Source of the DNA: Batkoa obscura
Lineage: Eukaryota
Length of the DNA: 64,000 bases
Assembly (NCBI GenBank): GCA_030770535.1
Contig: JASVEC010000013.1
Coordinates: 372,001-436,000 of the forward strand
Direction of reading: 5' to 3'
Shown here: piece after piece, positions 17,415-62,488 of the stretch
Layout of the letters: every line of letters begins with the position of its first letter
Numbering within the stretch: the stretch's first letter is position 1
Notes under the pieces: generated by a model
Database searches by the model: none
Told to the model about the DNA's origin: nothing
Seen by the model: only the letters and a program-made list of their open reading frames with translations
Translations under genes and position numbers: made by a program

Positions 17415-18697
17415 TTTATTTCTAAGTAATATTTCTCTAGTAGTTGTCTAAGGTCTAGTTTAATGTTTAAGGCCAGTGACCACGAGTTTCAAAGCCATAG
17501 GATTTGTTAGCAGCTGGTTGATTATTTACTGGAACTGAAGTGATTGCAGACAAGATGTAAACAGTGTAAGCGATGAGTAAAGTAACTTGCATTTCGTTTA
17601 TAAGTAATTTGTATCTAAGGTAGTTTAAGTCAATTGAATGATAAAGCACCACTATTTATACTCCTTGATTATAATACATACTTGTATATAAATGTTGATT
17701 TGGTTTTTACAATGGATACCTCAAGTTAAGCTCAATGGTTAGCCTCATTTGTAACCTAATTTACATTGACAACACATGGTAGGTATAGCACATTGTCGTT
17801 GATTAAATAATATTTGAAATATATTAATAATATAGCACTTTTATTATCCATCCTTTATTTGAACTTTTTACGATTATATTCTCCATAGACCTAAATAGAA
17901 GAACTCTATTCTATAAATTATTATACACACCTTTTAAAAAATACTTAAAATTTTAGAGTCTGTTTACTTTTATAAACATTATATCATATACCTTTTAACT
18001 AATAAATTAAAATAACCATTACGTTGGGTACTTTTATTTATAACTTACCATTATATTGTTATGATAAAACAATCATACAATTAATTAAATAGCTTTTTGC
18101 CTTGTTGCTGTCGTTATGAAGTATACAACATTTAACTGTTTATTAGCTATTATTATTATGATATTATTTTTATTTTCGACTTTATTCAAATATTTATATA
18201 ATATAAATAAATGAACATTTTAGATAACATCACAATAAATGTGAAAAGATCTTTAACACATATTCATAAGTAGACTAAAAATGAGCAAATTAAATTAAAG
18301 TGCAGTCTAGTAATAAATAAATCAGGGATACTATTATATTGAATCCCTTTAAAATTTAACTCATTTTGGGATTTACCTTTTGTGAGTAAACTTGTCAAGT
18401 AAATTTACTAAATTAAATGTTATCCAAAAAAAACTTGAATTATATATTAGTTATTTTCATAAAAAGGTTCTCCAATATAAAAACTAGATAGCCTATACCT
18501 TTGAAATTAAAATTGTGGAGTATGAACTTAGTTAATGTAACAGCAGATGATACCCCAGTAGCATGGTAGCAATGGTAAATAACGTTTAGTAATACTTTTT
18601 AAGTAGTTTTTTTTATTAAATATATATTTATGTAATAATTAATTTAACAAGATATGAATTAACCAAGTATAGCATCATATTGAATGAAATAAAAATG
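17415..18697 (-). repeat. 1283-bp apparently identical inverted duplicate of 25575-26857
   Basis: End points give the same length and the inspected interior matches; contains the peptide gene plus ~1.1 kb upstream. Confidence 0.9.
17467..17592 (-). CDS. Secreted HWP-peptide precursor copy 1 (MQVTLLIAYTVYILSAITSVPVNNQPAANKSYGFETRGHWP)
   Basis: 41-aa ORF; TATAAATA ~70 bp upstream; AATAAA ~45 bp downstream; one of seven equal-length paralogs. Confidence 0.85.
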   Translation of the reverse strand: MQVTLLIAYTVYILSAITSVPVNNQPAANKSYGFETRGHWP

Positions 18698-20202: not shown

Positions 20203-21096
20203 ATGTATATCTCTTCTGAATTTAATAGAAATTTAATTAATTTTTTTTCTAATTCAATATCATTAATTTTCATTCTATTCTGTTTTTTTTTATTTACAAT
20301 TATATCATATTGTAACAAAGAGATCAACCATTCGATTACTTACAGATTGTCATTATGTATACTATTAAGTGACTTAATCTATAACTTAAGGTTAATATCT
20401 GAGAAGGTACTTTATGAATATGGATCGCCATCAGCTTGTTATTTAAATTTATGGATAATTTCATTTGGTATTTCAAGCTCAATGTTATACTCAATAGCGA
20501 TAGCAGCGCTCTATTTAATCAATATAAAATATCAATACAGAATCACAAAGTTAATCCAACGCTTGATTCTTATAACACCAGCATTGATATCGTTGGCAAT
20601 AAGTCTATCACCTATTGTATTTAATAAAATTGATGCTACAGAAGAAAGTTGTAAATACAGAACTAAAGAGGGGGGAGGGTATTGGTCAATAGTATGTAAT
20701 TTTTCAACAGTATTTGTAGGGATAACAGTAATACCAATTATATATATAATATTAATTTGTCATCTAATAAAGAAGAAAAGGGAGCTAAATAAAACAAATA
20801 GCAAATTAAATAGAAGTGGACTGGATATTAGCTATTACACTCTTTCTAGATTAGTTTTATACCCATTAATACCAATCGCTACTCATAGCGTTACTATCTA
20901 TATATCAATTGGTGCCCTTTTGGGGATCTCAATCGATGCTTACTCTGGGAATATTTTAGTCTTAATTTTAACTTTCTTTTCTGGTATACAAGGATTTATA
21001 AACTCAATTTTATATCTTACTAACTCAATTTTCTTAAAAGAGATAAACGTTCTTGTTGATAAGCTATTTGGATCTGAATATTATAAATCATTATAA
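20203..21096 (+). CDS. cAMP-receptor-like/Git3-type 7TM GPCR, paralog 1
   Basis: 7 TM; ITYRLS..ILLSDL, TM3 Cys, RLVLYPLIP, SGIQGFINSILYLTN. Confidence 0.8.
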   Translation: MYISSEFNRNLINFFSNSISLIFILFCFFLFTIISYCNKEINHSITYRLSLCILLSDLIYNLRLISEKVLYEYGSPSACYLNLWIISFGISSSMLYSIAIAALYLINIKYQYRITKLIQRLILITPALISLAISLSPIVFNKIDATEESCKYRTKEGGGYWSIVCNFSTVFVGITVIPIIYIILICHLIKKKRELNKTNSKLNRSGLDISYYTLSRLVLYPLIPIATHSVTIYISIGALLGISIDAYSGNILVLILTFFSGIQGFINSILYLTNSIFLKEINVLVDKLFGSEYYKSL

Positions 21097-21356
21097 TTAG
21101 TATAATTTTTTTAATTGATAATAGATTCGATTCTCACCCAAAAAGTATAATGTTCCTATTTAATAGATTAGGATCCTAAGATCAACTTCATATGATATAG
21201 CCAATCTCGTACAAACGTTTCAATTCTAATATTTTATCTATAACTCTTTTTGTATTTCTTCTTTAAATAAAGTACTAAAAATTATTTATTGTTTATACAA
21301 ATCATGAATCTGAACTTAGCAAGAGGTTTTTAAATCATGTACACGATTTATTATTT

Positions 21357-22290
21357 TAAACTTTTATCATTTATCCTGACAACTTCACTTTAAATTGACA
21401 ATCTTTGTGTAGCGAATTTCATAAACAAGTAAAATGTGATTTTTTTCGTTGAGATGGTAGGGGTTACTGATTGATTAGGTGGATTTTTTTCACTGTAAAT
21501 AAAATTCCTATCTTAAAGTTTTACTTTAATTAAAAAAGTAGTTATTTGAATTAAAAAACAACTATTAAAGATATTTAATAAGGTTAGGTTTGGGAGATTA
21601 TGGTTATGATTGGTGTTAGTGTTTATATTTAGTTAAATACAATCAGTGATTTCTTTGGTAAAAATTAATACTTTACTAAAAAAATTATTACCTACCTAGC
21701 CAGAGTACCCCCTACCTTTTTTCTGTGATTTGTGCCATGTCTTCTTTATACCAAAATCATGCATAAAGACAATATCTAAGACTATGGAGCCTGTTAGAGC
21801 TGCCGATGTCATTTCTATAACCCCAGACCACTTTTCTGATTATAATATCGATATCAATGTATTTTTACTTTAGCCACTGGCTCAGGTTCAAGTAAAGAAT
21901 TAAATGCTTATTTAGGTCCTGTTAGCAATAAATTTGCAAGATTTATTTTTACAGTATGTCAAGGAAGTAAATATTTAACAGCAGCTAGTTTATCTGATAG
22001 TAAAAAAAGCTACCATTAATAAAGGCCTTTTTAGTATTAGGACTGATAAATACCCAAATGTTCAATGATAATGTCAAGCTAAATTAACTTATGATAGCAA
22101 GCTTGTAACTTCTTCTGGTGCTGCTGTTGGGTTAGATAGAGTTTTCTGTTTAATTAATGAAGTTTATAATCTATATGCATCTACAAAAATTTCTAAAAGA
22201 TCAATAGAGTTGAGTACCAAGCCCAAATATATTGATAATTTTACTGAGATAGAAAAGAATTTCCATTTTTTAAGCTCTAGTGTTATTTGA
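21357..22290 (+). pseudogene. DJ-1/PfpI pseudogene (paralog of 43716-44435)
   Basis: Recognisable FIPKS..IKTI, ITPDHF, TVCQGS, YPNVQ*, TSSGA with stops and frameshifts; family-B MITE inserted; 5' boundary approximate. Confidence 0.8.
21456..21716. mobile_element. ~260-bp MITE (family B)
   Basis: TIR GGTAGGGG..TACT / AGTACCCCCTACC; internal AAGGTTAGGTT. Confidence 0.75.
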
Positions 22291-22542
22291 CAATAAGCAC
22301 TAAACTTTGTAATATTTTTTTATAAATTATTTATACTATATATCTATTAAAATTTCTTTAATAAAGCTTCGATATGGGGGTGTCCAAATTGGTTTCAGAA
22401 TTTAACTAGAAATTAATCCAAATTTTAAGTTTTTAAATTTGTAAGTCTTTAATGTATGATCAGCTAAATTTAAAAAGCCTAAAATTAAATATAAAAATTT
22501 AGCTTAAAAGACTTATTTATTTTATTTTTTTAATTATATGTT

Positions 22543-22899
22543 TGTGAAAGTTGGTACTCAGTGATTGAAGTTAAAAGCAGTCCTAGCTTAATTAACTGGC
22601 CGTAAGTCAAAAGGCCTTAGTTTATGTAACTAAGATAGACTTAAATTAATAGGAATAGTGCGCAATAAGCTACGAACTATATAAAATAAATAGAATAGAA
22701 GGTACTACTATAAAATCTACGTAAAATACTATAAGACTTAGTGGCTTTATTAAAAGTATAATATTAGGGAACAATTTAATTAAAAAGCCTCGAGCTATTA
22801 TGTTGAAGAATTCCTTTTATACTCCAACTAGTTTTGTAAACAAGTTAAGTGATTATTATACGATAAGCAATCATGGAGCTGATAAAACGATATTTCACA
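22543..22899 (+). mobile_element. Solo-LTR-like insert within the transposon 5' region
   Basis: TGTGAAA...TTTCACA termini; homologous to the free copies at 30553-31011 and 59629-60096; flanks ATGTT/GTGTT. Confidence 0.65.
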
Positions 22900-22992
22900 G
22901 TGTTTTGTATTTTTTTTATTAAATGTTTAATAGATATATAAGATGTAAATATATAATTATTTGACTTTGTTTTTTATTAAAATAAAAGCAAA

Positions 22993-24699
22993 ATGCAAGC
23001 TTTTATAACTAAACTTCGAAATGGAATTTCTAAAAACTTTAATATGGTAGGGAGAAGCACATTGTATAAACATTGTAATTCATTTACATCAATTTTAGCA
23101 ACTATTCACAATAACCCAGAGTTTATGGAATTTTATAATAAAACAAAAAAAAGAAAAGAAAAGTTATTAAATTTTACTATTAATAATAACAAACTTAATC
23201 AAGCAATGTATAAAATTAGTGCTTTAAAGGAAACAGGAAATAAAAACCAATGGGTAGTATTATTATCGATTATAGCTTCAATATATTCTTTTGATGAATG
23301 TAAAAGTTTTGGATTTAATAGAAATAGAAATCAATATGATTATTCAAAAATAATTAATAATAATAATAAAACACCAACATTACAACCTATTATTAAAAAT
23401 ACAAAAAAAATTAGAGATGAGCAAATTGAGATTATTATACAATATTTACTTGATAATTCAACTATTTCACCAAGATTTAGTAAAAAAAATAATGATAAAT
23501 ATTTGTCAGAGAATATATATATATTAAATAAAAGTAGAAGAATGATATACAGTAAATATTTTAATGATTTAAAAGATAAAGCAGTAGCTAGGTCAACATT
23601 TTTCAAATATATACTAAATAATTTTAAAAATCCAGCAAGAAAAACAGATTTATGTAATATATGTGCCCAGTATACAGTTAGAAAAAAGTTATTTGAAAAT
23701 AAAATAAATATGGCAACAAAAAATAAAGCAGAGATAGAAGAATCTTTTAATAAAGAAAAAAGGTTATATAAATTACATGAATTTTGTGTTGATACTCAAA
23801 AAAACATACTTAATGAAACTATCAAAAAATTAAATAATAGAAGTTGTATAATAATTTTAGACTTTAAACAAAATATGGAAATAGGAACAAGACCAGATCC
23901 AATAAACTTAGACCATTATAACAAACAAGCTATATCAGTATTAGGATTTGGCGTTTTGTATTTAAAAAACGATAAAACAATAGGCAAAATTTATTTTGAT
24001 TATTTATCTGAAATACTAAATCATGATTCAGCATATGCAGGGGATTGTTTAATTGATTTAATATCTAAAGAGCCTTTACTCAAAAAGTTTACAAAAATTA
24101 ATATATGGGCAGATATAGGATATCATTTTAAATCTCAAGAGTTTTTATATTATACATTTGAAGAAATTTATAAAATAAATAGTAGTTTAAATATTGATCT
24201 TAATTTTTTTGCCGAGCATCATGGAAAAAGTATAATTGATGGTCATTTTGGAAATCTTTCACAGTGGAAAAATAATCTTGAAGCATTAAGTAAAATAGAA
24301 GATATTGATCAATTAATTTCAAAATTTGTGATTTTTATTCGTAAACATAATATAATTAATAACTCAACTGTCAATAATGGGAAAACAGATATAATTTTTA
24401 AAAAGTATGAAAGAAACAAAGATACAAAAATAATAATAAAAATACAAGGCATTAGAAAGTATTTACATTTTATTAAACGTGATAATAAACTACACTGTTA
24501 TCCAGTATCTGATAGATCAAAAAAAAGTGATATAATTCCAATTAAAGTTATAGAGTCTATAGAGAATAGAAAAATTAAAAGATCAACTCCAGCTTATCTT
24601 ACAAAAATAACAGAAAATTTAAAAGTTTCAATATTTAGTAGGCAAGTAAGTAGCTTACTAAACGATAGAAATCAATTATTAAATGTTGATATTACTTAA
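22993..24699 (+). CDS. Transposase (Sola-like)
   Basis: CxxC (DLCNIC), candidate catalytic acidic residues ILDFKQN, WADIG, HHGKSIIDGHFG; lies between TIRs. Confidence 0.85.
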   Translation: MQAFITKLRNGISKNFNMVGRSTLYKHCNSFTSILATIHNNPEFMEFYNKTKKRKEKLLNFTINNNKLNQAMYKISALKETGNKNQWVVLLSIIASIYSFDECKSFGFNRNRNQYDYSKIINNNNKTPTLQPIIKNTKKIRDEQIEIIIQYLLDNSTISPRFSKKNNDKYLSENIYILNKSRRMIYSKYFNDLKDKAVARSTFFKYILNNFKNPARKTDLCNICAQYTVRKKLFENKINMATKNKAEIEESFNKEKRLYKLHEFCVDTQKNILNETIKKLNNRSCIIILDFKQNMEIGTRPDPINLDHYNKQAISVLGFGVLYLKNDKTIGKIYFDYLSEILNHDSAYAGDCLIDLISKEPLLKKFTKINIWADIGYHFKSQEFLYYTFEEIYKINSSLNIDLNFFAEHHGKSIIDGHFGNLSQWKNNLEALSKIEDIDQLISKFVIFIRKHNIINNSTVNNGKTDIIFKKYERNKDTKIIIKIQGIRKYLHFIKRDNKLHCYPVSDRSKKSDIIPIKVIESIENRKIKRSTPAYLTKITENLKVSIFSRQVSSLLNDRNQLLNVDIT

Positions 24700-25574
24700 A
24701 TTATTGATAGCTAAGTTAATAAATAGTCAAAGAACAAGTAGCTGTAATAATAAATAAAAACTATTACTACATTGCTTACATTATATGAAGATGGCTAATT
24801 ATAGTTTAGGGTTGATTACTCCCTTTTATGCAGCTATTTATTAACTTGGCGATATATTAACAATATAATCATAACATTAAAATTAAAATTATTTATTTGT
24901 TTAATAGCAAATTTCCAATATTGGTTATAAAACAGTTAATAATAAATATTTCTCAATGAAGTTTTATCAAAGTATCTATTTATTTACATAATACAACTTT
25001 GGTTAATATCAATATATAAGTTATATTATTAAAAGCCTTATTAATCCGGGGATTTCTATTAAATTTAGTAAAAATTCTGCTAACTTATAATATAAACTAT
25101 AATAAAATAATTTAAAACTGTGTTAGATACCTTTGGTTTTTAATAAATAATTTATTTTTATAAAATTTTAAGCAAAGCCTTTAAAATATAAAATATTTAA
25201 AAATTGGATAAAAAAATGAAACCAATTCAGATATCCCCATATACTTACTAAGATTTCCTAAAGTGACTTCCAATGTTAAAAGACAAATTTTATCAGATTC
25301 ATTAGTATTTGTCTCTCTATAAGCATAGCTTTATCAAATAAGTTGTTGCTGCATCCAGGCTGATATTAAGCCATGTACTTTACCACGTGGTTCATTAATT
25401 GTATTAATAGAATAAAGTGGTAAAGGATTAAGTGGTATTAATCACAGAGTTAACTTGGATAGGACTAGGCCGAATACACTTTCAAATATAAGTTAAAATT
25501 ATTTATAATGGGGCTAAAGTATGATAAAAGTTTTATATTGGGGAAATTATAAGATAAATATATTCCATACTGTT

Positions 25575-26857
25575 CATTTTTATTTCATTCAATATGATGC
25601 TATACTTGGTTAATTCATATCTTGTTAAATTAATTATTACATAAATATATATTTAATAAAAAAAACTACTTAAAAAGTATTACTAAACGTTATTTACCAT
25701 TGCTACCATGCTACTGGGGTATCATCTGCTGTTACATTAACTAAGTTCATACTCCACAATTTTAATTTCAAAGGTATAGGCTATCTAGTTTTTATATTGG
25801 AGAACCTTTTTATGAAAATAACTAATATATAATTCAAGTTTTTTTTGGATAACATTTAATTTAGTAAATTTACTTGACAAGTTTACTCACAAAAGGTAAA
25901 TCCCAAAATGAGTTAAATTTTAAAGGGATTCAATATAATAGTATCCCTGATTTATTTATTACTAGACTGCACTTTAATTTAATTTGCTCATTTTTAGTCT
26001 ACTTATGAATATGTGTTAAAGATCTTTTCACATTTATTGTGATGTTATCTAAAATGTTCATTTATTTATATTATATAAATATTTGAATAAAGTCGAAAAT
26101 AAAAATAATATCATAATAATAATAGCTAATAAACAGTTAAATGTTGTATACTTCATAACGACAGCAACAAGGCAAAAAGCTATTTAATTAATTGTATGAT
26201 TGTTTTATCATAACAATATAATGGTAAGTTATAAATAAAAGTACCCAACGTAATGGTTATTTTAATTTATTAGTTAAAAGGTATATGATATAATGTTTAT
26301 AAAAGTAAACAGACTCTAAAATTTTAAGTATTTTTTAAAAGGTGTGTATAATAATTTATAGAATAGAGTTCTTCTATTTAGGTCTATGGAGAATATAATC
26401 GTAAAAAGTTCAAATAAAGGATGGATAATAAAAGTGCTATATTATTAATATATTTCAAATATTATTTAATCAACGACAATGTGCTATACCTACCATGTGT
26501 TGTCAATGTAAATTAGGTTACAAATGAGGCTAACCATTGAGCTTAACTTGAGGTATCCATTGTAAAAACCAAATCAACATTTATATACAAGTATGTATTA
26601 TAATCAAGGAGTATAAATAGTGGTGCTTTATCATTCAATTGACTTAAACTACCTTAGATACAAATTACTTATAAACGAAATGCAAGTTACTTTACTCATC
26701 GCTTACACTGTTTACATCTTGTCTGCAATCACTTCAGTTCCAGTAAATAATCAACCAGCTGCTAACAAATCCTATGGCTTTGAAACTCGTGGTCACTGGC
26801 CTTAAACATTAAACTAGACCTTAGACAACTACTAGAGAAATATTACTTAGAAATAAA
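25575..26857 (+). repeat. 1283-bp inverted duplicate of 17415-18697
   Basis: Apparent identity; weaker similarity continues ~190 bp further upstream. Confidence 0.9.
26680..26805 (+). CDS. Secreted HWP-peptide precursor copy 2 (identical to copy 1)
   Basis: ATG at 26680, TATAAATA at ~26612, AATAAA at ~26852. Confidence 0.85.
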   Translation: MQVTLLIAYTVYILSAITSVPVNNQPAANKSYGFETRGHWP

Positions 26858-27282
26858 CATGACGATATAGAAATAATACTATTTTGAATATCTTTAAATA
26901 ACAATTTCTATTTATTATAAATCATAAAATTAAAAAGATTATTATTTTATTAACAACAGGGTATGTAAATATATAGATATATTATTTTGTTCATTCTTTA
27001 TGCATAGTAAAATTGAATAAAATTGTATCAGACCTTAAACATATTTCTACATCAAAAATAATATTGAATTTGCTTTATCCTAATACAACTTGATGTGTTA
27101 ATGAATATGTTTAAGGTTTTGGTCATATAAAACTTTAATGTGCTAAAACAAATAAAATATTTATAAGTTTAAAATTCTAATAAATCCATCTTTACTAATA
27201 CTAATTTATTATTTATTATTTTACCACTTCACTGAAATATCTCTGCGCTTTGACTTCTATATCTTTAAACAGAATTCCATAT

Positions 27283-27381
27283 GGGGGTGTTTTTTTTGGG
27301 TTCATCACTTTTTCTATCTTTTAAGCGCTGTTTGAGCGGAAAAATTGTTAATAAAATTCTTAAGCATAGAAATACATCCTC
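27283..27381 (+). mobile_element. ~99-bp MITE (family A)
   Basis: GGGGG terminus; ATAT both sides. Confidence 0.85.
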
Positions 27382-28808
27382 ATATTCTATTGTAATAATT
27401 AATATTTCGTATCTCATAAAAACTCAAGGTTTAGAAAATTACACCATTGTTGCATCTAGAATATCATAGACTTACACCTCAACTCGTGGCTCATTAATTA
27501 TATTAATAGGATAAAATAGTGAACAATAAAGGAGTATTAAACATTGAATTAACTTGAATAGGACTAAACCGATTACATTTTTAAATAAGTCAAAGTTATA
27601 TACATGGGACTAAACCTTATTAGATATTTTATATTAAGGGGAATTTATGATTAATTTATTCTTTAACGGTCATTTCTTGCTTTAACTGTATGAAACTAAG
27701 CCTGGCTAACCCAAGTAACTTGTTCAATACCTTTTATTATTATACTTTTTCTAAAGCTAAATAAAGAATCCCAATAAGCGTTGGGTATTATTATCACTTT
27801 GTTGCTGAGGTATCATTTGTATTTTATTGATTAAAATTATTATTGTAATCAAAGTCTTATACCTTGCGCTTTTAGCTCTAATGATACAAATAATTCATTT
27901 TAAATATCGGTAATTTTTTTAAAAAAATATCAAATAGATTATACTAGTTTTTTATGGATAACCTATTAAATTTAGTAATTTGTACTCCAATTTTAAGTAC
28001 AAGAGCTAAATTCTAAAATCAGTTAAATTTCAAAGGGATTTAATTTTATAGTAAACTCAACTTTTTGTTGGACTGTAGTACTTTAATTATATTTGATATA
28101 TTTATGAATATTTCTAAAGAAACACACACTAAGAGTTTCTTTAACTTCAATGTCTGTACTTTTTTCTAATTTCGTTATCACTTGAGCTGAAAGTTAAATA
28201 ACTGTAAAATAGATAATGATGTCAAGATAATAATAATTAATACGAGATTAAATAACATATAATCAATAATTCAAAGCAACAAGTTACTAATAGTTAAATA
28301 TTTTATGATGTCAAATTGCAATGAAAATAGTTTTATATAATAATAACATGAAGATGAGTAATAAATACAAAGTGGCCCAAAACGGCTATTAGTTTCTTCC
28401 TATAGGTCAACGCATATGAGATAGGTATTTATAGAGTTGAAAAAACCTAGATTTTAAATATATTTATTAGAAGGGTGTATAAAAATATGAAAAATCTAGT
28501 TTTTTTATTCAAATTATAAAATATAAACGTAAAGTTTTTAAATTAAGGATAACTAACAAGAATGATACATTACAAATGTAAATCAAGTATGTATTTGGTC
28601 AACCGTAATGGGCTATATACCACGAGCTATTGATATAAATCAAGTCATAAACGAATCAATCTATAAAGTTTAATTCGAATTGCCACCGGTAGTAACACAT
28701 CTAATATTTTTAATATAGTTCCGTGATTTACCAAAAAATATAAATAGTAGTATTTCTACCATTCTTATAAAATTTAATTACGTTAGATACTTCTCAATCA
28801 TAAATAAA

Positions 28809-28934
28809 ATGCAAGTTAGTTTACTCATCGCTTACACTGTTTACATCTTGTCTGCAATCACTTCAGTTCCAGTAAATAACCAACCAGCTGCTGAAAAATT
28901 CTTTAATAGTGGAACTCATCGTCACTGGCCTTAA
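28809..28934 (+). CDS. Secreted HWP-peptide precursor copy 3 (MQVSLLIAYTVYILSAITSVPVNNQPAAEKFFNSGTHRHWP)
   Basis: Manual translation; TATAAATAG ~70 bp upstream; AATAAA downstream; not in the ORF track. Confidence 0.85.
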   Translation: MQVSLLIAYTVYILSAITSVPVNNQPAAEKFFNSGTHRHWP

Positions 28935-29616: not shown

Positions 29617-30552
29617 GGGGGTGTCCGAATTAGTCATTTTTTTATCCAATTTTTAAATTATTTTGTTATAATTTATATTGTAGGTTAGCGGGATTTCTAT
29701 CAAATTTAATATAAATTCCTGAATTAGCAAGGCTTTTACCAATATAGCCTATATAGTGATGTTAATCAAAGTTGTAATATGTAAATAAATATATATATTT
29801 ATAAAACTTTATTAAGAAATATTTATTATTAACTGTTTTATAACCAATATTGGAAATTTGCTATTAAACAAATAAATAATTTTAATTTTAATGTTATGAT
29901 TATATTGTTAATATATCGCCAAGTTAATAAATAGCTGCATAAAAGGGAGTAATCAACCCTAAACTATAATTAGCCATCTTCATATAATGTAAGCAATGTA
30001 GTAATAGTTTTTATTTATTATTACAGCTACTTGTTCTTTGACTATTTATTAACTTAGCTATCAATAATTTAAGTAATATCAACATTTAATAATTGATTTC
30101 TATCGTTTAGTAAGCTACTTACTTGCTTACTAAATATTGAAACTTTTAAATTTTCTGTTATTTTTGTAAGATAAGCTGGAGTTGATCTTTTAATTTTTCT
30201 ATTCTCTATAGACTCTATAACTTTAATTGGAATTATATCACTTTTTTTTGATCTATCAGATACTGGATAACAGTGTAGTTTATTATCACGTTTAATAAAA
30301 TGTAAATACTTTCTAATGCCTTGTATTTTTATTATTATTTTTGTATCTTTGTTTCTTTCATACTTTTTAAAAATTATATCTGTTTTCCCATTATTGACAG
30401 TTGAGTTATTAATTATATTATGTTTACGAATAAAAAGCTCAACTTTTGAAATTAATCGATTAATATTTTTTATTTTACCCAATGCTTTGAAATTATTTTT
30501 CTAGTATAAAAGATTTCCAAAATGACCATCAATTATACTTTTTCCATGATGC
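29617..30552 (-). mobile_element. 5'-truncated Sola-like transposon (3' TIR plus transposase C-terminus)
   Basis: TIR at 29617; ORF 30069-30482 matches the transposase C-terminus; in-frame stop upstream; ends at the LTR-like element. Confidence 0.85.
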
Positions 30553-31011
30553 TGTGATTGTTGGTACTCAGTGGTAGGAGTTAAAAGCAGTTATTGCTTG
30601 ATTAATTTGCCTTGAGTCGAAAGGCCTTAGTTTATATAACTAAGATAGACTTAAATGAGTAAGAATGATATGTAATAAGTTACGAACTATGTAAAATAAA
30701 TAGAATAGACAATACTACTGTAAAATCTACCTAAGATGTTGTCAGAAAGGCTTAGTGACTTTATTAATGGTACGATATCAGGGAGTAACTCAGTTAAAAA
30801 GCCTCGAGTTATCATGTTGAAGAATCTCTTTTATATTCTTTGCAATATGAAGTTAGAAATTCTCACAGCAAATCAAAACAAGAAACTTTGGATTGATTAT
30901 ACCACATTATTCACGGTCAAATTGATTACAAGACTACCACTAGCTTTGTAACCAAGTTCAATGATTGTTATGTTATAATTAATCCGAGAGCTGATAAACC
31001 AATATTTCACA
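30553..31011 (+). mobile_element. Free solo-LTR-like element
   Basis: TGTGA...TTTCACA, 459 bp, homologous to 59629-60096; no clear TSD. Confidence 0.6.
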
Positions 31012-31130: not shown

Positions 31131-31134
31131 ATAT

Positions 31135-34003
31135 GGGGGTGTCCGAATTGGTTTCATTTTTTTATCCAATTTTTAAATATTTATATTTTAAAAACTTTGC
31201 TTAAAATTCTATAAAAATAAATTCTTTATTAAAAGCCAAAAGTACCCGACACAGTTTTAAATTATTTTGTTATAATTTATATTGTCAATTAGCGGAATTT
31301 TTATTAAATTTAATATAAATTCCTGGATTAGTAAAGATTTTACTAATATAGCCTGTATAGTGATATTAGTCAAAGTTGTAATATGTAAATAAATATATGC
31401 TTTTATATAGCTTTATTAAGAAATATTTATTATTAATTGTTTTATATTCAACACTACAGATTTGCTATCAAATGAATAAATTATTTTAATGTTATAATTA
31501 CATTATTAATATATCGCTAAGTTAATAAATAGCTGCATGGGAGGGAGTGGTTAGCCCCAAAACTATAATTAACCATCCCTATGTAATACAAGCAGTGTAT
31601 TAATAGTTTTTACTTATTATTACAACTACTTGCTCTTTGACTATTTATTAACTTAGCTATCAATAATCTAAGTAATATCAACATTTAATAATTGATTTCT
31701 ATCATCTAATAAGCTACTTACTTGCTTACTAAATATTGAAACTTTTAAATTCTCAGTTATTTTTGTAAGATAAGCTGGGGTTGACCTTTTAATTTTTCTA
31801 TCCTCTATAGACTCTATAACTTTAATTGAAATTATGTCGCTTTTTTTTGATCTATCAGATACTGGATAACAGTATAGTTTTTTACCACGTTTAATAAAAT
31901 GTAAATACTTTTTAATACCTTTTATTTTTATTATTTTTTTTGTATCTTTGTTTCTTTCATACTTTTTAAAAATTATATTTGTTTTCCCATTATTGACAGT
32001 TGAGTTATTAAATCTATTATTTTCACAAACAAAAATCTCAAATTTTGAAATTAATTGATCAATATCTTCTATTTTACCTAATGCTTCAAGACTATTTTTC
32101 CACTGTGAAAGATTTCCAAAATGCCCGTCAACTATACTTTTTCCATGATGCTCAGCAAAAAAATTAAGATCAATATTTAAACTACTATTTATTTTATGAC
32201 TTTCTTCAAATACATAATGTAAAAACTCTTGAGATTTAAAATGATATCCTGTATCTACCCATATATTAATTTTTGTAAACTTTTTAAACAAAGGCTCTTT
32301 AGATATTAAATCAATCAAACAATCTCCTGCATATGCTGAATCATGATTTAATATTTCAGATAAATAATCAAAATAAACTTTGCCTATTGTTTTATCGTTT
32401 TTTAAATACAAAACGCCAAACCCTAATACTGATATAGCTTGTTTGTTATAATGATCTAAGTTTATTGGATCTGGTCTCGTTCCTATTTCCATATTTTGTT
32501 TAAAGTCTAAAATTATTATACAACTTCTATTATTTAATTTTTCAATAGTTTCATTAAGTATGTTTTTTTGAGTATCAACACAAAATTCATGTAATTTATA
32601 TAACCTTTTTTCTTTATTAAAAGATTCCTGTATCTCTGCTTTATTTTCTGTCGCTGTATTTATTTTATTTTCAAATAACTTTTTTCTAACTGTATACTGG
32701 GCACATATATTACATAAATCTGTTTTTCTTGCTGGATTTTTAAAATTATTTGGTATATATTTGAAAAATGTTGACCTAGCTACTGCTTTATCTTTTAAAT
32801 CATTAAAATACTTACTGTATATCATTCTTCTACTTTTGTTTAATATATATATATTCTCTGACGAATATTTATCATTACTTTTTTTACTAAATCTTGATGA
32901 AATAGTTGAATTATCAAGTAAATATTGTATAATAATCTCGATTTGCTCATCTTTAATTTTTTTTGTATTTTTGATAGTAGGTCGTAATGTTGGTATTTTA
33001 TTATTATTAATTATTTTTGAATAATCATATTGATTTTTACTTATATTAAATCCAAAACTTTTACATTCATCAAAAGAATATACTGAAGCTATAGTCGATA
33101 ATAATGCTACTTGTTGGTTTTTATTTCCTGTTTCCCTTAAAACACTAATTTTATACATTGCTTGATTAAGTTTGTTATTATTAATAGTAAAATTTAATAA
33201 TATTTCTTTTCTTTTTTTTGTTTTATTATAAAATTCCATAAACTTTGGGCAATTGTGAATAGTTGCTAAAATTGATGTAAATGAATTACAATGTTTATAT
33301 AATGTGCTTCTCCCTACCGTATTAAAGTTTTTAGAAATTCCATTTCGAAGTTTAGTTATAAAAGCTTGCATTTTGTTTTTATTTTAACAAAAAACAAAGT
33401 CAAATAACTATATAATTATATATTATATAGCTATTGAATATTTAATAAAAAATACAAAACACTGTGAAATATCGTTTCATCATCTCTGTGATTGATTATC
33501 GCATAATAATCACTTAACTTGTTTACAAAACTAGTTGAGTATAAAATAGATTCTTCAACATAATAGCTCAAGGCTTTTTAATTAAATTGTTCCCTAATAT
33601 TTTACTTTTAATAAAGCCACTAAATCTTTCTGATAATATCTTATGTAGATTTTATAGTAATATCCTGTATTCTATTTATTTTACATAGCTCGTAGCTTAT
33701 TGCGTATTACTCCTATTGATTTAAGTCTATCTTAGCTACATAAACTAAGGCCTTTTGACTTACGGCCAGTTAACTAAGCTAGAGCTGCTTTCAACTCCAA
33801 TTGCTGAGTACTAACTTTCACAAACATATAATCAAAAAAATAAAATAAAATAAAATAAATAAAATAAGTCTTTAAGTTAAATTTTTATATTTAATTTTAA
33901 GCTTTTTAAATTTAGCTAATCATACATTAAAGACTTACAAATTTAAAAACTTAAAATTTGGATTAATTTCTAGTTAAATTCTGAAACCAATTCGGACACC
34001 CCC
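31135..34003 (-). mobile_element. Full-length Sola-like DNA transposon, copy 2 (2869 bp)
   Basis: Perfect TIRs GGGGGTGTCCGAATTGGTTTCA, ATAT both sides; internal LTR-like insert 33463-33822. Confidence 0.9.
31668..33371 (-). CDS. Transposase (Sola-like)
   Basis: 567 aa, nearly identical to 57348-59051. Confidence 0.88.
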   Translation of the reverse strand: MQAFITKLRNGISKNFNTVGRSTLYKHCNSFTSILATIHNCPKFMEFYNKTKKRKEILLNFTINNNKLNQAMYKISVLRETGNKNQQVALLSTIASVYSFDECKSFGFNISKNQYDYSKIINNNKIPTLRPTIKNTKKIKDEQIEIIIQYLLDNSTISSRFSKKSNDKYSSENIYILNKSRRMIYSKYFNDLKDKAVARSTFFKYIPNNFKNPARKTDLCNICAQYTVRKKLFENKINTATENKAEIQESFNKEKRLYKLHEFCVDTQKNILNETIEKLNNRSCIIILDFKQNMEIGTRPDPINLDHYNKQAISVLGFGVLYLKNDKTIGKVYFDYLSEILNHDSAYAGDCLIDLISKEPLFKKFTKINIWVDTGYHFKSQEFLHYVFEESHKINSSLNIDLNFFAEHHGKSIVDGHFGNLSQWKNSLEALGKIEDIDQLISKFEIFVCENNRFNNSTVNNGKTNIIFKKYERNKDTKKIIKIKGIKKYLHFIKRGKKLYCYPVSDRSKKSDIISIKVIESIEDRKIKRSTPAYLTKITENLKVSIFSKQVSSLLDDRNQLLNVDIT

Positions 34004-34449
34004 ATATGTTTAAAGACTTACTAGGAGCTTAAAATTATATTTAACAATACTAATATGATGCGAGTTCTTAAAACCTTTTGGCATAAGAATTCTATATTAC
34101 TTTTTAAATTTTATTTAATAATTAATTTTGGAATAAGTACTTATTAGAATTCTTTTCAAAAAGCGCAATTTAATATACAAATTTATCTGAAAAATTTTTT
34201 TATTTGAAATTTAACTAATGGTTTATTTGAGTTTTATACCATAAAAAAAGGGACAAAACAAAAAAAGCGTTCACATATTTTATAAAATAACTGATAGCTT
34301 CAAAACAATAATAAATTTATTAAAAGCAAAAAATAAAGAAACAGAACCAAGATATTTAGGTCATAGCTACATCTATGGGTCTATCAAAATCTCATTTAAA
34401 AGTGCTTTTGACAGCATAAAATTATAGTATTCTAACTATTTTTATAATC

Positions 34450-35866
34450 AACGCTATCTAGAATTTTCGTAGTGCTACTTCAATTTCATGAGAATGTTTA
34501 AATAAATCTGAATCATTTATATTTTTAACACCAAACGATGGGTCCTCTAGTTTAATAAAATAGGCTGGATTATGATAGTTGAGACTCTCTTCTTTTTTAA
34601 TTTATATTTATAGAATATAAATAGCACGGCTGCTATCATTAATATAAATCCACTTAGTCCTCCTATGGCACCATCTATTAGTGCTTTATCGTTGCTATCA
34701 CTTACATTTGCAGCGTCTTCTATGTTCTTATCGTTCTTATCATTGTTAGTACCAATGTCAATATTTGTGTTAATTTATTGTGTTAGTGGTATGCCTTTAC
34801 TTCATCCCGTTTATCACTATCCAGTAATTGGGTTCCATCTGGACTTTCTATATTAAATTTATATTCAGGATAAATGGAATTAATAGTTCTCTTGCCAAAA
34901 GAGTTAATTGTGCATTTATTATAGTTAGAAAAACAATCCCAATATCTAAAATTAAAATTTTTCTTTATAATAGTGATATTAAATGTCTTTATATTTAATT
35001 ATAGAACATCTCCAGATATGTTATGGTTCTCCATATTTCCATTACACGTCATAAAGTATACCAATTGACCCAATTTTAGGATAGTTTCATAAGTTGATAC
35101 ATTCAGACTACTTTTATTTAAACTGTAGGTTTTGGCTTTGTTTGTTTTTAAATTAAACTCACAATATACTATAATCAGCGCCATGCTTAGTTTTTTCTAC
35201 TTTATTTTCAAAGTAATAGATTCTATTATTTGAAATAAATGGATCTGTATATAACCTATCCCTTGAATTTCCTATGATGACTTATAAATTACTTGTATTA
35301 ATATTAAATAATAATAATGGAAATGATAATGTACTCTGTAGTTTATAATTTTATAGATATGGCATTATACAAAACCGCTTTTAATTACTATTACTTTGCA
35401 AAATCTTATAATGTAGCTTACGACTCGTTGTGTTCTTATCTTTATAATCAATGTTATGAATTAAGTTTTCGATTATTTGTTCTTTTACCGTTGATTTTTC
35501 TGAATGTTATAATAGCAACAACTTAGTCTATGATTTATACTGCTATAAAAACTTATTATAGATTTACTATCTTTAATTTTGATATAAAAAGTAGATGAAG
35601 GTAATACATCCTCTGATTAATTTATAGTATCATTCCTTTCCCATGAGATTATATTGACACTTGATTTAAAACCTTTCTTTAAATCTAATTTAAATACTTC
35701 TTTGTTGGAAAGTTCATTTTTATCTATTGAACTTTTGCTATCAATAATACCACCTAAATAATACAATACATCATCAATTACTATGTATCCACCATCACGA
35801 GCTCGTGGTAAGATTTTGTTAACCTTATAGAATAACAAGAAAATAAAAAAATAAGTGAACTATCAT
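34450..35866 (-). pseudogene. Degenerate kelch-TM paralog
   Basis: PRARDGGYIVIDDVLYYLGG at the 5' end, TM remnant and DLFKHSHEI motif at the 3' end; many frameshifts; boundaries approximate. Confidence 0.75.
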
Positions 35867-36952: not shown

Positions 36953-37078
36953 CTAAGGCCAATGAGGGTGAGTTCCAAGATGAGAGGCATTATGAGCAGC
37001 TGGTTGGTTATCAACTGGAACTGAAGTAATTGCGGACATGATGCAAATAGTACAAGTAATAATAAAAGTAAGTTGCAT
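36953..37078 (-). CDS. Secreted HWP-peptide precursor copy 4 (MQLTFIITCTICIMSAITSVPVDNQPAAHNASHLGTHPHWP)
   Basis: Manual translation of the minus strand; TATAAATA upstream (~37139-37146); AATAAA-like signal downstream; not in the ORF track. Confidence 0.85.
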   Translation of the reverse strand: MQLTFIITCTICIMSAITSVPVDNQPAAHNASHLGTHPHWP

Positions 37079-39722: not shown

Positions 39723-40634
39723 ATGAAAGTAGGCTTTCGTGGAGCTTTCATTATCAGCTTTTCTAATACAATATCAATCACTGTTATATTGTTTTCACTT
39801 ATATTATGTATGGGCGTTTCATTTATCAATAAAGAAATAAATAAATCAATCACATATCGTATTTCTATTTTAATAATTATAGGCGATTTACTTTACAATA
39901 TTGGAGGCCTAATAAAGCTCCTTCCGATAGTCTACACAAATTCCTATTTATGTTATTTCGCTCAATGCGCTAATACTTTCGGTTTCTCAATTTCAGTGTA
40001 TTATTCAATAGTAATAGCTATAATTTATCTCTTAAATATTGTGTACCAATATAAAGTTAGAAAGGTGATGAAATACGTTATATACATAGTACCGTTTATA
40101 TTATCAATTGTCTCCTCCTTATTACCAATAATATTCAAGAAAATAGATACGGATAATGAATGCTCATATTACGATGACCTTGATGGAGACTTATGGTTAG
40201 CTTTCTGCAATAGTATTTCAATGGTTATTGCAATAATAGTAACACCTGTGATATATATTATAATAGCCAATTTTTTTGTCAGAAAAACAATGAAAAAAAA
40301 GGCAAATTTGAATTCAAGTGACCAAAAGCAAAGTAATCGTTCAGCTTTGTCAAGGCTACTTAGCTACTCTTTACTCCCAATTATAACTCACTCTTTGATG
40401 GTCTTTTTGATATTTTTTGTGTTATCTGAAAAAATGATAGATAACACAATATTTAAAATTTTAAAGATCAGTAGCGTTTTTCTTATTGGATTACAGGGCC
40501 TATTAAATTCCATTTTGCTTTTAACCAACTCAATATTAACTAAAGAATTAAATAATGCCTATAACAAGGTATTTGGATTGAGAGGATTGGGTGACCTTTA
40601 TAGAATAGGCAGATTTTCTAAAATACAGTGTTAG
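39723..40634 (+). CDS. cAMP-receptor-like/Git3-type 7TM GPCR, paralog 2
   Basis: 7 TM; NKEINKSITYRIS, RLLSYSLLP, GLQGLLNSILLLTN; clear paralog of 20203-21096. Confidence 0.8.
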   Translation: MKVGFRGAFIISFSNTISITVILFSLILCMGVSFINKEINKSITYRISILIIIGDLLYNIGGLIKLLPIVYTNSYLCYFAQCANTFGFSISVYYSIVIAIIYLLNIVYQYKVRKVMKYVIYIVPFILSIVSSLLPIIFKKIDTDNECSYYDDLDGDLWLAFCNSISMVIAIIVTPVIYIIIANFFVRKTMKKKANLNSSDQKQSNRSALSRLLSYSLLPIITHSLMVFLIFFVLSEKMIDNTIFKILKISSVFLIGLQGLLNSILLLTNSILTKELNNAYNKVFGLRGLGDLYRIGRFSKIQC

Positions 40635-44435: not shown

Positions 44436-46861
44436 ATTTATTATTTTTGGTTTTTAGTTTTTAGTTTGGATATCTGTTTACTCTTTGCTTATATAGTTTT
44501 TGATGATCCAGTTATTGTCAAGCCATTTACAAAGTTGATAATAAATTTGAATTGAAGTGATGTGTATAATCTAATTTAAAAATAATCTATGAACAACCTA
44601 TAAAAGGAAAGTTTCTAGAAAATTTTAAATATTATATCTAAGATCATCAGACTTCAAGGAGAAAATGTATCGTTATACCTACTACATACTTTACTGACTA
44701 AAACTATTTTTAGGTCTGGTTTATTAGCTATCTTATGTATTATGTTGTTATATTTAATCTAATAAAAGTCAAAATTTAAAGGTGGTAAATTCAATAATAC
44801 TTTAGTTAAACATAAGGCTCAACTCGTTTTCCGATTTTAATTTGCATTTTTTTCCGAGGTTGTCATTACAAATTGAGTTTTTGTGTTTTTCTATTGGAAA
44901 AAATGATTTGGCAGGAAACAAAAAAAGTAATTCATGTTTCTAGCAGTCATTACAAAATGCTTGGTAGTGGTACAAAATAAAGAAAGATTCTCATCAAAAA
45001 ATAGTCAACTTTATACAAAAAAACATATGGTTGAAGCACTCCGCTATTTAAAAATTAAATATCTATTTTTAGATTTGATTCATAAGATTTCTTTAAAACT
45101 CATGGTTTTTTTTAAAAGGTTCAGAGCAAACTAGATTTTAAATGAATCTATGATCTTAGATATAACACAACCACTTTGTTTTTTATATACTAAAAAATAT
45201 ATATTTACTGTTGCTTAAACACTATCAAATTTTATAAAAAACAATATATTACAAAGTAAAAATAAATTACTGATCGATGATTTATGTGCATTACCATTTT
45301 ATTTTTTAAATTAGTTTAAATTTGTTATTCATATTTCTAACACTAATAAAGCACTTAGGGTTTATACCCTTTTCAGGATTTTAAAAAATGTTATTTATTG
45401 AAAATGGCTCATTTTCATTGATTATAATTTAAAGTATCCAAATTTAAATAATCAATCAATAAAAATATATATTTCTTTTAAGAAAACAGAGTTTATAAGA
45501 TAAAAATAATATTTTTGAATCTTTGTACATCAATAAAAAAGTTTTTAGATGAATTAAGATATCATGAACATTAGGATCAATTAAAGGCTTAAAAGTGAAT
45601 CAGTTTCTATAAACATATTAATGATATGAACAATGGTTGGTATCAATAAGTATAAAATTAATCTAGAAATCGTGTAATAGTCAACTTTAAGGTCTTTTTT
45701 ATTTAGCTCCACTTTTTCTTTACTAAGCGATGAATTAATATTGTATATGTAATTAGTATAACTGTTATGGGAGCAAATACAAATTTAAAAGTATATGTCA
45801 TTAACTAACATGTTCTACCGCTTTTAATTTTTTAATATCGATTATAAAATGTTAACTTTTCCAAAGTAAATAAATAACTGATTATCACTTAAATCATAAA
45901 TACAAATAAAATTTTATACTACACGATTTTACTCCTGAAAATGTAAGTCATCTATTTTTCTATAATGATAACGTGCTTGTAAGTAATAATATATCATATC
46001 GCCTTTTTGTGGGTGGATTATTAAATTTAGTAAATTTTTTGACAAATTTGCATAGAGATGTTAAATTCTAAACTAAGTTAAATTTTAAAGGGAATCAATT
46101 TTACTAAAAACCAGATTTGCTCATTAAAGTACACATTAGTTATATTTGGTATATTCAATTTTAGTACTTTAAAATTGGAGGTTAAGAGTTTTTCACACTA
46201 ACATTTAAATACTAGTAAAGTAATTTATACAATTAAATCAAAAGTTGAATAAAGTTATAAAACATAAGATAACTTGAAAATAATAATAACTAATACAAAA
46301 CTAATTTCATATAGCCTATAAACCAGCAACCAATTATCGATAGTTGAATGATTTATTGTTTGGTATGACCATCTATGATACTTTTCCATAAGAAATGTAA
46401 AGTTGAATAGTAAGTAAAAAGCACTCTGAGAATTTTATAATTTTCTCTTTATTAGTTAAGAAATCCGCGATAAAATATTTAAAAATCAAGTAGACTCTAG
46501 ATTTTAAAAATACTTATTGATAGGGTGTACAATAATACAATCAAACCAATTTTTTTATTTAGAAAATTATTAAAAATCATCGTAAAAAGTTTAAATTAAG
46601 AATAAGTAACAAAAGTATTGTAATATAAAAATATTTTAATCTCTACTCAGCTAACGACAATATATTATAACACACCATGTGTTGTCTATACATTTAAGTT
46701 ATAAACAAACCGATCCATTAATCTTAAAATAATACATCCGTGTTAGCAACTCATTTAACGTTTGTAGTATGATTAGATACTATTAACAAGAAGTATAAAT
46801 AGTAAGGATTTTACTATACTACAAAATTATATTACATTAGATACAAATTACTATATACAAA

Positions 46862-46987
46862 ATGCAACTTACTTTCCTTATCGCTTACACTGTTTACATT
46901 ATGTCTGTAATCACTTCAGTTCCTACTAACAACCAACCAGCTGCTGATAAAGCCAAAGTAGTTGAAATTCGTCGTCACTGGCCTTAA
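46862..46987 (+). CDS. Secreted HWP-peptide precursor copy 5 (MQLTFLIAYTVYIMSVITSVPTNNQPAADKAKVVEIRRHWP)
   Basis: Manual translation; TATAAATAG ~46794; AATAAA ~47035; not in the ORF track. Confidence 0.85.
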   Translation: MQLTFLIAYTVYIMSVITSVPTNNQPAADKAKVVEIRRHWP

Positions 46988-48845: not shown

Positions 48846-48971
48846 ATGCAACTTACTTTCCTTATCGCTTACACTGTTTACATTATGTCTGTAATCACTT
48901 CAGTTCCTACTAACAACCAACCAGCTGCTGATAAAGCCAAAGTAGTTGAAATTCGTCGTCACTGGCCTTGA
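48846..48971 (+). CDS. Secreted HWP-peptide precursor copy 6 (same protein as copy 5)
   Basis: Identical coding sequence with TGA stop; tandem unit ~1.98 kb. Confidence 0.85.
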   Translation: MQLTFLIAYTVYIMSVITSVPTNNQPAADKAKVVEIRRHWP

Positions 48972-50737: not shown

Positions 50738-50863
50738 ATGCAACTTACTTTCCTTATCGCTTACACTGTTTACATTATGTCTGTAATCACTTCAGTTCCT
50801 ACTAACAACCAACCAGCTGCTGATAAAGCCAAAGTAGTTGAAATTCGTCGTCACTGGCCTTGA
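50738..50863 (+). CDS. Secreted HWP-peptide precursor copy 7 (same protein as copy 5)
   Basis: Identical to copy 6; tandem unit ~1.89 kb. Confidence 0.85.
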   Translation: MQLTFLIAYTVYIMSVITSVPTNNQPAADKAKVVEIRRHWP

Positions 50864-51104: not shown

Positions 51105-51912
51105 TAATTGCAGCTGGTTCCTAAAAAATTGTAATTTACCGCCATGAATAAATTTGACTTAACATTATCATTGATCATTGGGATATTTAGAAGCACTGAT
51201 ATTAAAAATTGCTTTAGTAATTGTGTCCCTTCTATTATCTAATAAGCCAACAGTTACAATTAATCGTTCACTTCCCTAACATACAGTGAAAATAAAGCTG
51301 TTCACTTTATTTTTAACATACTTTAAAAAGGCACTCAATTATTGACTTAAATCTAATCACCAGGGTAATTTAAGATTGTTGATATCTATGTCTTGTTCAA
51401 AAAAAAGGTCTGGGGCTATAGAGATCCGTTTGGTAGGAGGTACTGACTAAGTAGGTAGTTTTTTATACTGTAAAAAATTCCTATTTTGGACAGTTTTGTT
51501 CCAAATAAAAAAATTACTATTTAGAATAAAAATACAGCTATTATACGCTTTTAATAAAGTTAGGTTAGGAAGTTTAGGGTTAGGGTTTATATTTAGTTAA
51601 ATTTAACCAGCGATTTGTCTGATAAAAATCAATACTTTGCCAAAAAAAAATACTATCTACCTAGTTAGTGCCCCCTATCATGCGCTCAACAGTTTTAATA
51701 TGTTCTTTGATTGTAGCGATTGCCTTTACACGTGATTTAGGTATAAAAGATAACATGGTACATGCAATTTAGAAATCAAGATTATATAAGCCAGTGCTAA
51801 TTACAGCAATTATAGTGAGTTATTTTTCTGATAATGGAACTTTGAACCAGATACTGTTAAATTAATTCCTTTGCTTTGAAGTGAAGTTTTTGTAATTTGT
51901 TTCCACTGAGTC
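51105..51912 (-). pseudogene. DJ-1/PfpI pseudogene
   Basis: NFTSKQ..FNSIWFKVP, CTMLSFIPKSR, TVC*GSE, GLLDN; stops, frameshifts and a family-B MITE; boundaries approximate. Confidence 0.8.
51432..51679. mobile_element. ~250-bp MITE (family B)
   Basis: TIR GGTAGGAGGTACT / AGTGCCCCCTATC; internal TTAGGGTTAGGG. Confidence 0.75.
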
Positions 51913-53991: not shown

Positions 53992-54666
53992 TATGTTTAA
54001 ATTTTAAATCAATTTATCAATATTAAATTAATATATTTATACTATCAACTTCAACTAAGGTTTTATTATAAATATATAATATCATTAAAAGTATAAATAG
54101 TAAATATTTTATTATCTCATAAAGTTATATTATATCATATATATTACTTATAAATCCAATATAACTTACTTTTTTTACTGCTTGTATTGTTTATATTATA
54201 TCTATAATCATTCAGTTTTTATTAATAGCTAACTAGCTATTAATATAGCCAATATAGTTGAAATTTGTTATCACTGGCTTCAAACATTAAACTAAACCTT
54301 GTATTATCATTAATTAAATATTTTTAATTAAATAAATAAAATCTTTTATAAAACTAAATTAATTTAAAAATCTTTCTATAAAGGTATTTGTGTATTATTG
54401 ATAAATATAACATGATATTTATAAAAATTTTTAAAAAAAGAATTCTATATTTAAATACTGAAATATATTTTTTTATTTCTATTTGTTTATTTTTTATATA
54501 ACATAAAATTGATCAAATCTTTCAGTAAAATAGGATGTTAAAAATAAATATTTTAATTAGCTATAAATTTTTAATATTTAAAATAATTTATTAACTTATT
54601 AAAATAAAATAAAATAAAATCAATAATAAATTTTTGAAAAATAACTAATAATAAGAATCAAAAAGT

Positions 54667-56711: not shown

Positions 56712-56715
56712 ATAT

Positions 56716-61579: not shown

Positions 61580-62488
61580 ATGTTTGAATCACCATTTAAA
61601 ACGTATATGTTAGAATATTATGCTAACTCATTATCTATAATATTAACATTATACTCATTATTTTTATTTATTACTGTGTCTTTTATTAACAATAGAATCA
61701 ACAATAATATACCTTATTTAATTTCCATATTTATATTAATAAGTGATTTGTTATATTCAATATGTCAAATAGGATTTGCATTTGTTACATTACCACCAAT
61801 AGCATGTAAAATCTATCAATGGGTGGAGATGTTATCTATATCCTTATCAATGTTTTATGCAGCTACTATATCAATTATATTTTTATTAGCAATCAAATAT
61901 GAACTAAGATTAACTTTAACAATGAGGATATTAACGTATAGTATAGCACCAATATTATCTATAATATTAAGTACATTACCAATAGCTTTTGATAAGATAA
62001 GGACAACGGATGGATGTGGCTTTAATATGAAAGGAGATGGGGTTATTTGGATTTTAGCTACCAAATTTGGAGCTACTTTTTTTACCGTGTTTATATGTCC
62101 CATTATTTATATTGTAATTATCTATTATCTAGCATTAAAGAAACGTATGTTAAGTCGATCAGGAATCAGTAGTGGCAGTAATGGCTCTTCGATACGATAT
62201 AGAGCCTTTATACGATTATTCATTTATCCATTAATACCTTTAATTAGTTATGTATTTTATATGGTTGTATTTCTGTTTGCTATCTTTAAAATTAAAATGA
62301 ACAAGACGACCGTTTCTACTATTGGTGATATTGGCGCCTTTTTTTCTGGTTTACAAGGTTTTTTTAATTCATTATTATTTTTAACTAATAGTATCTTCTT
62401 AAAAGAAATTAATCAAGTGGGAGAATGGTATAGTGATTCTTCCTTCTTTGATAAAACTTATTTTATTAAATTGAAACAATCTAATTGA
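61580..62488 (+). CDS. cAMP-receptor-like/Git3-type 7TM GPCR, paralog 3
   Basis: First ATG 61580 (ORF-track start is TTG); ILISDLLY, RLFIYPLIP, SGLQGFFNSLLFLTNSIFLKEIN. Confidence 0.8.
   Translation: MFESPFKTYMLEYYANSLSIILTLYSLFLFITVSFINNRINNNIPYLISIFILISDLLYSICQIGFAFVTLPPIACKIYQWVEMLSISLSMFYAATISIIFLLAIKYELRLTLTMRILTYSIAPILSIILSTLPIAFDKIRTTDGCGFNMKGDGVIWILATKFGATFFTVFICPIIYIVIIYYLALKKRMLSRSGISSGSNGSSIRYRAFIRLFIYPLIPLISYVFYMVVFLFAIFKIKMNKTTVSTIGDIGAFFSGLQGFFNSLLFLTNSIFLKEINQVGEWYSDSSFFDKTYFIKLKQSN

Follow-up and report, generated by a model that had tools for sequence, protein, structure and literature searches.

The window, the whole 64-kb stretch of DNA that was analysed, contained a family of seven intact 41-codon peptide genes of four types, together with one decayed copy (Table 1). 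We propose, with a probability of roughly 0.4, that the four peptide types are secreted precursors from which a C-terminal peptide is released to activate a linked GPCR; HWP would be the common end and residues 29-38 the address. Secretion, processing and receptor binding of the peptides are all inferred. Much more secure than the receptor link is the conclusion that the 41-codon ORFs are genuine peptide genes on which gene conversion has acted.

Table 1. Peptide genes, their elements and the GPCR-fold genes of the window
Feature	Position	Strand	Description
Copy 1	17467..17592	-	Identical to copy 2 from -1105 to +52; type A
Copy 2	26680..26805	+	41 codons, 126 nt; C-terminal 13 residues NKSYGFETRGHWP; type A
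Copy 3	28809..28934	+	126 nt; C-terminal 13 residues EKFFNSGTHRHWP; type B
Copy 4	36953..37078	-	HNASHLGTHPHWP; type C
Copy 5	46862..46987	+	DKAKVVEIRRHWP; type D
Copy 6	48846..48971	+	Type D; matches copy 5 exactly between -204 and +55 save the stop codon; outer flanks diverged
Copy 7	50738..50863	+	Type D; matches copy 5 exactly between -188 and +60 save the stop codon
Decayed eighth copy	54082..54342	+	Matches copy 5 with its flanks at 187 of 264 aligned positions
Predicted signal peptide, codons 1-19 (copy 2)	26680..26736	+	Mean hydropathy 2.1 over residues 3-17
Pro segment, codons 20-28 (copy 2)	26737..26763	+	Invariant VP and NQPAA; purifying selection
Variable segment, codons 29-38	26764..26793 (copy 2), 28893-28922 (copy 3)	+	
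Invariant HWP and stop (copy 2)	26794..26805	+	
TATA box TATAAATA (copy 2)	26612..26619	+	In 7/7 copies; at -68 in six, at -70 in copy 3
AAATAA polyadenylation-like signal (copy 2)	26851..26856	+	+46/+47 past the stop in 7/7 copies
GPCR a	20203..21096	+	297 aa; seven-helix GPCR fold (predicted model)
GPCR b	39723..40634	+	303 aa; 39-41% identical to GPCR a
GPCR c	61580..62488	+	302 aa; belongs to the family of GPCR a and b; shares 91% identity with a Neoconidiobolus thromboides protein
GPCR 3' remnant	45421..45792	-	Closest to GPCR a

A family of 41-codon peptide genes

The window had a G+C content of ~25% and its genes were of the eukaryotic type. By sequence type, copies 1 and 2 belonged together (A), as did copies 5, 6 and 7 (D), and copies 3 (B) and 4 (C) were single representatives. 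The 41-codon ORFs are real genes, as judged from their shared TATA box and AAATAA signal, purifying selection and C-ending codons. Specifically, 27 of 49 codons counted in the peptide genes ended in C versus 271 of 1329 in ten neighbouring genes, the four peptide genes not being independent of one another. The decayed eighth copy lacked a start codon and had stops in frame.

The predicted precursors shared a common layout. Residues 3-17 were hydrophobic in every type (mean hydropathy 2.1-2.3), and signal-peptide cleavage is predicted before VP. The variable segment was 10 codons long and HWP formed the C-terminal end in all seven copies. We took codons 29-41 as the putative mature peptide; the four types had no conserved dibasic site, and this predicted mature end is a guess.

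Copies 2 and 3 aligned without gaps and differed at 14 of 126 nt. The counts given in the original prediction were exact: the two copies differed at 2 of the first 84 nt (nt 11 and 72), at 12 of the next 30 (nt 85-114, changing 8 of 10 residues) and at none of the last 12. This clustering had a Fisher p of 1e-6 at the boundaries of that prediction, and finding 12 of 14 differences in any 30-nt window had a p of 3.5e-5 (scan, 200,000 random placements). That diversification is confined to the predicted mature part, as had been claimed, held for these two copies but not across the family: copies 2 and 4 differed at 8 of 19 residues of the signal part. In the independent pair of copies 4 and 5, amino-acid change was enriched in codons 29-38 (9/10 versus 8/28 residues, p = 0.002).

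Probable gene conversion between copies

Pairwise distances between flanks were crude and close to the shuffled baseline (0.32), so trees and score-against-shuffle tests were used instead. Among 82 informative upstream sites, copy 3 paired with copy 4 at 56, with copy 2 at 15 and with copy 5 at 11. All four informative sites of the prepro part paired it with copy 2 (Fisher p = 0.003 for upstream versus prepro, with the 11 copy-5-pairing sites dropped). Upstream, the AU test rejected the grouping of copies 2 and 3, with p values of 0.019 for the first 300 nt and 0.048 for nt 300-900. For the prepro part, the same test rejected the grouping of copies 3 and 4 (p = 0.037), but the KH and SH tests did not (p = 0.079). 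The variable segment and the 3' flank favoured the grouping of copies 3 and 4, non-significantly.

Conversion of the prepro part, one of two explanations offered in the original prediction, was thus supported for copies 2 and 3 by the tree conflict and the AU tests. Copy 3 is therefore related to copy 4, but its first 28 codons have likely been replaced with sequence from a copy-2-like donor, and copies 2 and 3 would differ at so few of the first 84 nt because of this conversion. Copies 5-7 were identical over about 370-385 nt, the stop codon aside, within diverged flanks, a second sign of conversion. Conversion can therefore mimic the pattern of a conserved prepro part and a hypervariable mature part that is usually taken as positive selection.

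Selection on the variable segment

In codons 29-38, mean pN was 0.46 and mean pS 0.25, as compared to 0.11 and 0.27 in the prepro part, and pN exceeded pS in all six pairs, which are not independent. In a codon model of four sequences, ω of the segment was 1.5-2.0 and did not differ significantly from 1 (p = 0.33-0.58). The tree length of the segment was 1.24 versus 0.92, 1.31 and 1.34 for non-coding flanks. Positive selection was thus not demonstrated, because ω was not significantly above 1 and the tree length lay within the range of the flanks; the data are suggestive only. Diversifying selection, the other explanation originally offered, accordingly kept the excess of pN in its favour and had the codon model and the flank-like divergence against it. 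Its authors had named ω at or below 1 together with divergence matching neutral flanks as the outcome that would speak against it, and half of this was observed.

The remainder of the gene was constrained. The prepro part had an ω of 0.29 (p = 0.006-0.008, best prepro tree), indicative of purifying selection. For the pro segment and HWP together, ω was 0.07-0.12 (p below 0.007), which bears out the proposed fixed HWP anchor.

These values raise the question of whether codons 29-38 are a weakly constrained spacer that changes at an approximately neutral rate, the contrast with the rest of the gene arising from conversion and from constraint on the prepro part and HWP as the working parts. Such a spacer would fit an ω compatible with 1, a tree length like that of the flanks, and the 2 differences in 84 nt for which conversion accounts. 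It fits poorly with the fixed length of the segment, with the excess of pN over pS in every pair, and with contigs from another strain that carry many synonymous and few replacement changes in the segment. We consider it very improbable.

Type conservation in another strain

The contigs came from run X1, which represents a related strain with about 96-98% likeness across long unique stretches. Eight X1 contigs aligned to copy 2, three of which covered the whole segment; variants were read by matching depth values. In codons 21-38, contig 1 carried 7 synonymous changes and 1 replacement (S31A) relative to copy 2, and its variants recurred in run X2, from another study. Contig 2 differed by 9 synonymous changes and 4 replacements, with residues 32-34 and 36-38 kept, and contig 7 by one replacement (S31A). 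Differences at contig ends were unlisted, such that 10/21, 10/24 and 3/6 were unseen, and the 80% likeness cut-off favours similar copies.

Within types, the changes numbered 4N:5S versus 23N:3S between types (p = 0.015, an optimistic value given that types were grouped post hoc and captured at 80% likeness). Contig 1 alone gave p = 0.04-0.08 against neutrality. Judged from these contigs, codons 29-38 are not a free or neutral spacer: the copy-2 type is kept while synonymous sites change. The picture suggested is one of distinct types, each maintained by selection and set apart from the others by bursts of change. Runs X2 and X3, which are only guessed to be RNA, contained contigs identical to copy 2 and contigs like copy 5, and document presence rather than expression.

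Two further features of X1 were noted. Contigs on 20527-21250 indicated that GPCR a exists there in two versions, with likeness of about 97% and 85%, and a type-D-like contig on 26700-26741 reached a depth about sixfold that of a single copy. The number of receptor and peptide genes may thus vary by strain, depth being a poor measure of copy number.

Linkage to GPCR-fold genes

Three peptide genes lay head-to-head with genes or remnants of one receptor family: copy 1 with GPCR a (2610-nt spacer), copy 4 with GPCR b (2644-nt spacer) and copy 5 with the GPCR 3' remnant. The similarity of this remnant to GPCR a agrees with the flank tree, which joined copies 1 and 2 with copy 5. Copies 2, 3, 6 and 7 lacked a receptor partner, and no peptide gene lay beside GPCR c in the window. 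The original prediction had called codons 29-38 a specificity segment. Within-type conservation in another strain and the head-to-head receptor genes, neither of them part of that prediction, lend support to this designation.

The model of GPCR a had a pLDDT of 69.8 and a pTM of 0.72. Its listed fold matches (Foldseek, VIA) were GPCR-fold proteins with Z of 20-23, the best having a Z of 22.8 and an rmsd of 4.1 over 277 aligned residues; such lists bring up other GPCRs and cannot exclude a family. None of six receptor-family members matched the Pfam models of Ste2 (at E up to 10), Ste3 or Dicty_CAR. The family nevertheless resembles cAMP-receptor-like and GPR157-like GPCRs in the predicted seven-helix fold of GPCR a and in the atlas look-alikes of GPCR b, which include cAMP-receptor-like (Dicty_CAR) clusters at 0.96-0.97 (language model). 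The receptor profile hit only three N. thromboides proteins (3 of 7995 candidates scored), and a PDB sequence search with it returned only E values of 0.26 or worse. By the N. thromboides hits, the window comes from a Neoconidiobolus-like fungus, either N. thromboides itself or a close relative.

GPCR c and its N. thromboides counterpart differed at 22 of 135 outer-face positions versus 6 of 167 others (p = 0.0002). No such excess was found between GPCR a and its N. thromboides relative (20/86 versus 23/127, p = 0.39). Variability on the outer face is common among GPCRs. A fourth seven-helix gene, at 566-1468, had a weak rhodopsin-family hit (E 2e-4) and no detectable kinship to the three clustered GPCRs.

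The linkage itself may be passive. The blocks that carry the peptide-GPCR units also contain duplicated Kelch-membrane and DJ-1 genes, and the linkage may therefore reflect block duplication. Homology between the peptide-GPCR spacers was restricted to the peptide-side half, and no promoter homology common to the three GPCR genes was found. The Kelch-like family (secreted or single-pass) occurred at 7481-8860, 9983-11407, 12381-13781, 34479-35859, 42140-43267 and 52776-53114; two to three genes were intact and several broken, and their co-duplication with the peptide-GPCR blocks makes them possible co-receptors. DJ-1/PfpI was represented by one intact and two partial or broken copies (43716-44435, 21745-22287, 51132-51900), each downstream of a peptide-GPCR block.

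Passive linkage would suit peptides that are host-directed effectors, acting on insect peptide receptors or immunity and diversified by host, with the fungal GPCRs as uninvolved members of a duplicated block. Small multi-copy genes whose secreted products have variable ends are a typical form of effector gene, and both transposons and duplications abound in the region. Moreover, the nearest named relatives are from N. thromboides, described in PMC11105155 as a generalist insect pathogen. Against this stand the head-to-head GPCR arrangement in three units, types that are conserved across strains rather than polymorphic, and a peptide for which our searches found no match in any known peptide family. 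We judge an effector role unlikely. If the peptides do act on insects, they would represent an effector class too short for standard gene calling.

Proposed function and comparison with known systems

In the favoured reading, receptor activation by the secreted peptides, the predicted signal peptide (residues 1-19) would be removed on export and an extracellular protease would trim the pro part near NQPAA, freeing a peptide of ~13 residues. HWP would be the activating end common to all types, and residues 29-38 would decide which receptor responds. Duplication of a peptide-receptor unit followed by a burst of replacements would yield a new type. Selection would then maintain each type, and conversion would keep the export part, and whole genes of the same type, alike. 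The role would most likely be cell-to-cell signalling within the fungus, either to sense density or to recognise a partner ahead of zygospore formation. The locus offers four short, synthesisable candidate ligands and three candidate receptors. If receptor activation is correct, an orphan family of fungal GPCRs would gain a peptide ligand, and there would be a handle on how insect-killing fungi form spores.

The peptide/GPCR locus would work like a pheromone/receptor cassette, yet its features place it outside both the alpha-type and the a-type. The features of alpha-type pheromone and KEP precursors, including a mature size of 9-24 residues, are set out in PMC6339444. The present system resembles the ascomycete alpha-type/Ste2 pair in its predicted secretory-route precursor, its predicted mature size of ~13 residues and its proposed GPCR sensor. 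It differs in that the pro part of all four types lacks a KR, RR or KK Kex2 site, RR being confined to the type D variable segment. Similarly, VP follows the predicted signal but the succeeding dipeptides are not XA or XP, and each gene has one core, whereas KEPs are defined by three or more. Finally, the receptors have no Ste2 Pfam match, the phylum is different, and peptide and receptor genes are linked.

The clustering of several types of peptide gene with receptor genes by unit duplication recalls the B (P/R) cassettes of basidiomycetes. In those cassettes, the pheromones are lipopeptides that bypass the secretory route, end in CAAX and are read by Ste3. According to PMC6339444, basidiomycetes have a-type pheromones only. 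By contrast, the present peptides have a predicted signal peptide and a cysteine-free HWP end in 7/7 copies, and the receptors have no Ste3 match.

A third comparison is with Qsp1 of Cryptococcus, an 11-residue peptide that leaves the cell as a pro-peptide, is processed by a serine protease and is taken up through Opt1 (PMC7537855). By analogy, the present pro-peptides could be trimmed outside the cell, re-imported by an oligopeptide transporter and act inside, with the GPCRs uninvolved. Both have the layout of a short, single-core pro-peptide (secretion and trimming being predicted here) with a mature size of ~11-13 residues; Kex2 repeats were unseen here and a dibasic site is absent. However, Qsp1 uses Opt1 and no surface receptor, whereas four types and linked GPCRs are present here, and four coexisting types would better fit discrimination by receptors. 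In addition, no oligopeptide transporter gene was present among the long ORFs of the window. Our searches, which ran the peptide against databases rather than against Qsp1 directly and readily overlook such short precursors, found no sequence link to it. Re-import is therefore quite improbable in our estimation, although the secreted S28 serine peptidase gene at 54667-56073 would suit it. This predicted peptidase gene adjoins the decayed peptide copy and is a candidate for the processing enzyme. Some members of the S28 family cleave beside proline.

A broader proposal is that the window holds a multi-specificity peptide-GPCR recognition locus of Entomophthoromycotina, built from duplicating, diverging head-to-head units that combine non-Ste2, non-Ste3 receptors with a non-Kex2 peptide. 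We regard this as somewhat doubtful. If correct, fungi would have a third pheromone-receptor system, independent of the other two, and the locus would offer a direct handle on mating or self-recognition in Zoopagomycota, whose mating genetics are "still not well understood" (PMC10386755). PMC8588673 suggests that Entomophthoraceae are homothallic and reports nuclear fusion in Conidiobolus thromboides.

Homolog and literature searches

A word-index search with one copy against proteins of 22-72 aa found no homolog of the peptide, and alignment to proteins of 73-2000 aa gave 56 candidates, none at E 10. Pfam had no match to the peptide, and exact look-up of 10 window proteins found none. The peptide pattern picked out 124 stretches of metagenome contigs, none confirmed, and the DNA pattern picked out none. 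A search of 1.84 billion sequences returned 2 hits, both repetitive proteins without the peptide layout, which were rejected as chance. These blanks are weak evidence because gene callers skip 41-residue genes.

Titles and abstracts, drawn from a collection with few subscription papers, yielded nothing on such a peptide family and no peptide-receptor signalling system for this fungal group, and "pheromone" had 0 occurrences in the portion of PMC11105155 searched. Likeness to GnRH, corazonin and alpha-factor motifs was dropped, as the common residues were unconserved over the four types. A POP-cyclised, MSDIN-type peptide was likewise considered and dropped, as the final proline has no follower.

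Transposons in the window

A 2.87-kb element with terminal inverted repeats (ATATGGGGGTGTCC...) was present at 22372-25243, 31131-34007 and 56712-59589, with a partial copy at 29651-30553. It contained an ORF of 567-568 aa without a Pfam match and is likely a DNA transposon of an unassigned family; its contig depth in run X1 was very high. Two copies were 99.7% identical, and the element was therefore recently active. Approximately 12 MITE-like elements of 107 nt carried the terminal repeat of this transposon, at 3203, 11166, 15994, 19950, 27276, 29343, 31026, 36686, 53615, 53888, 56608 and 62690.
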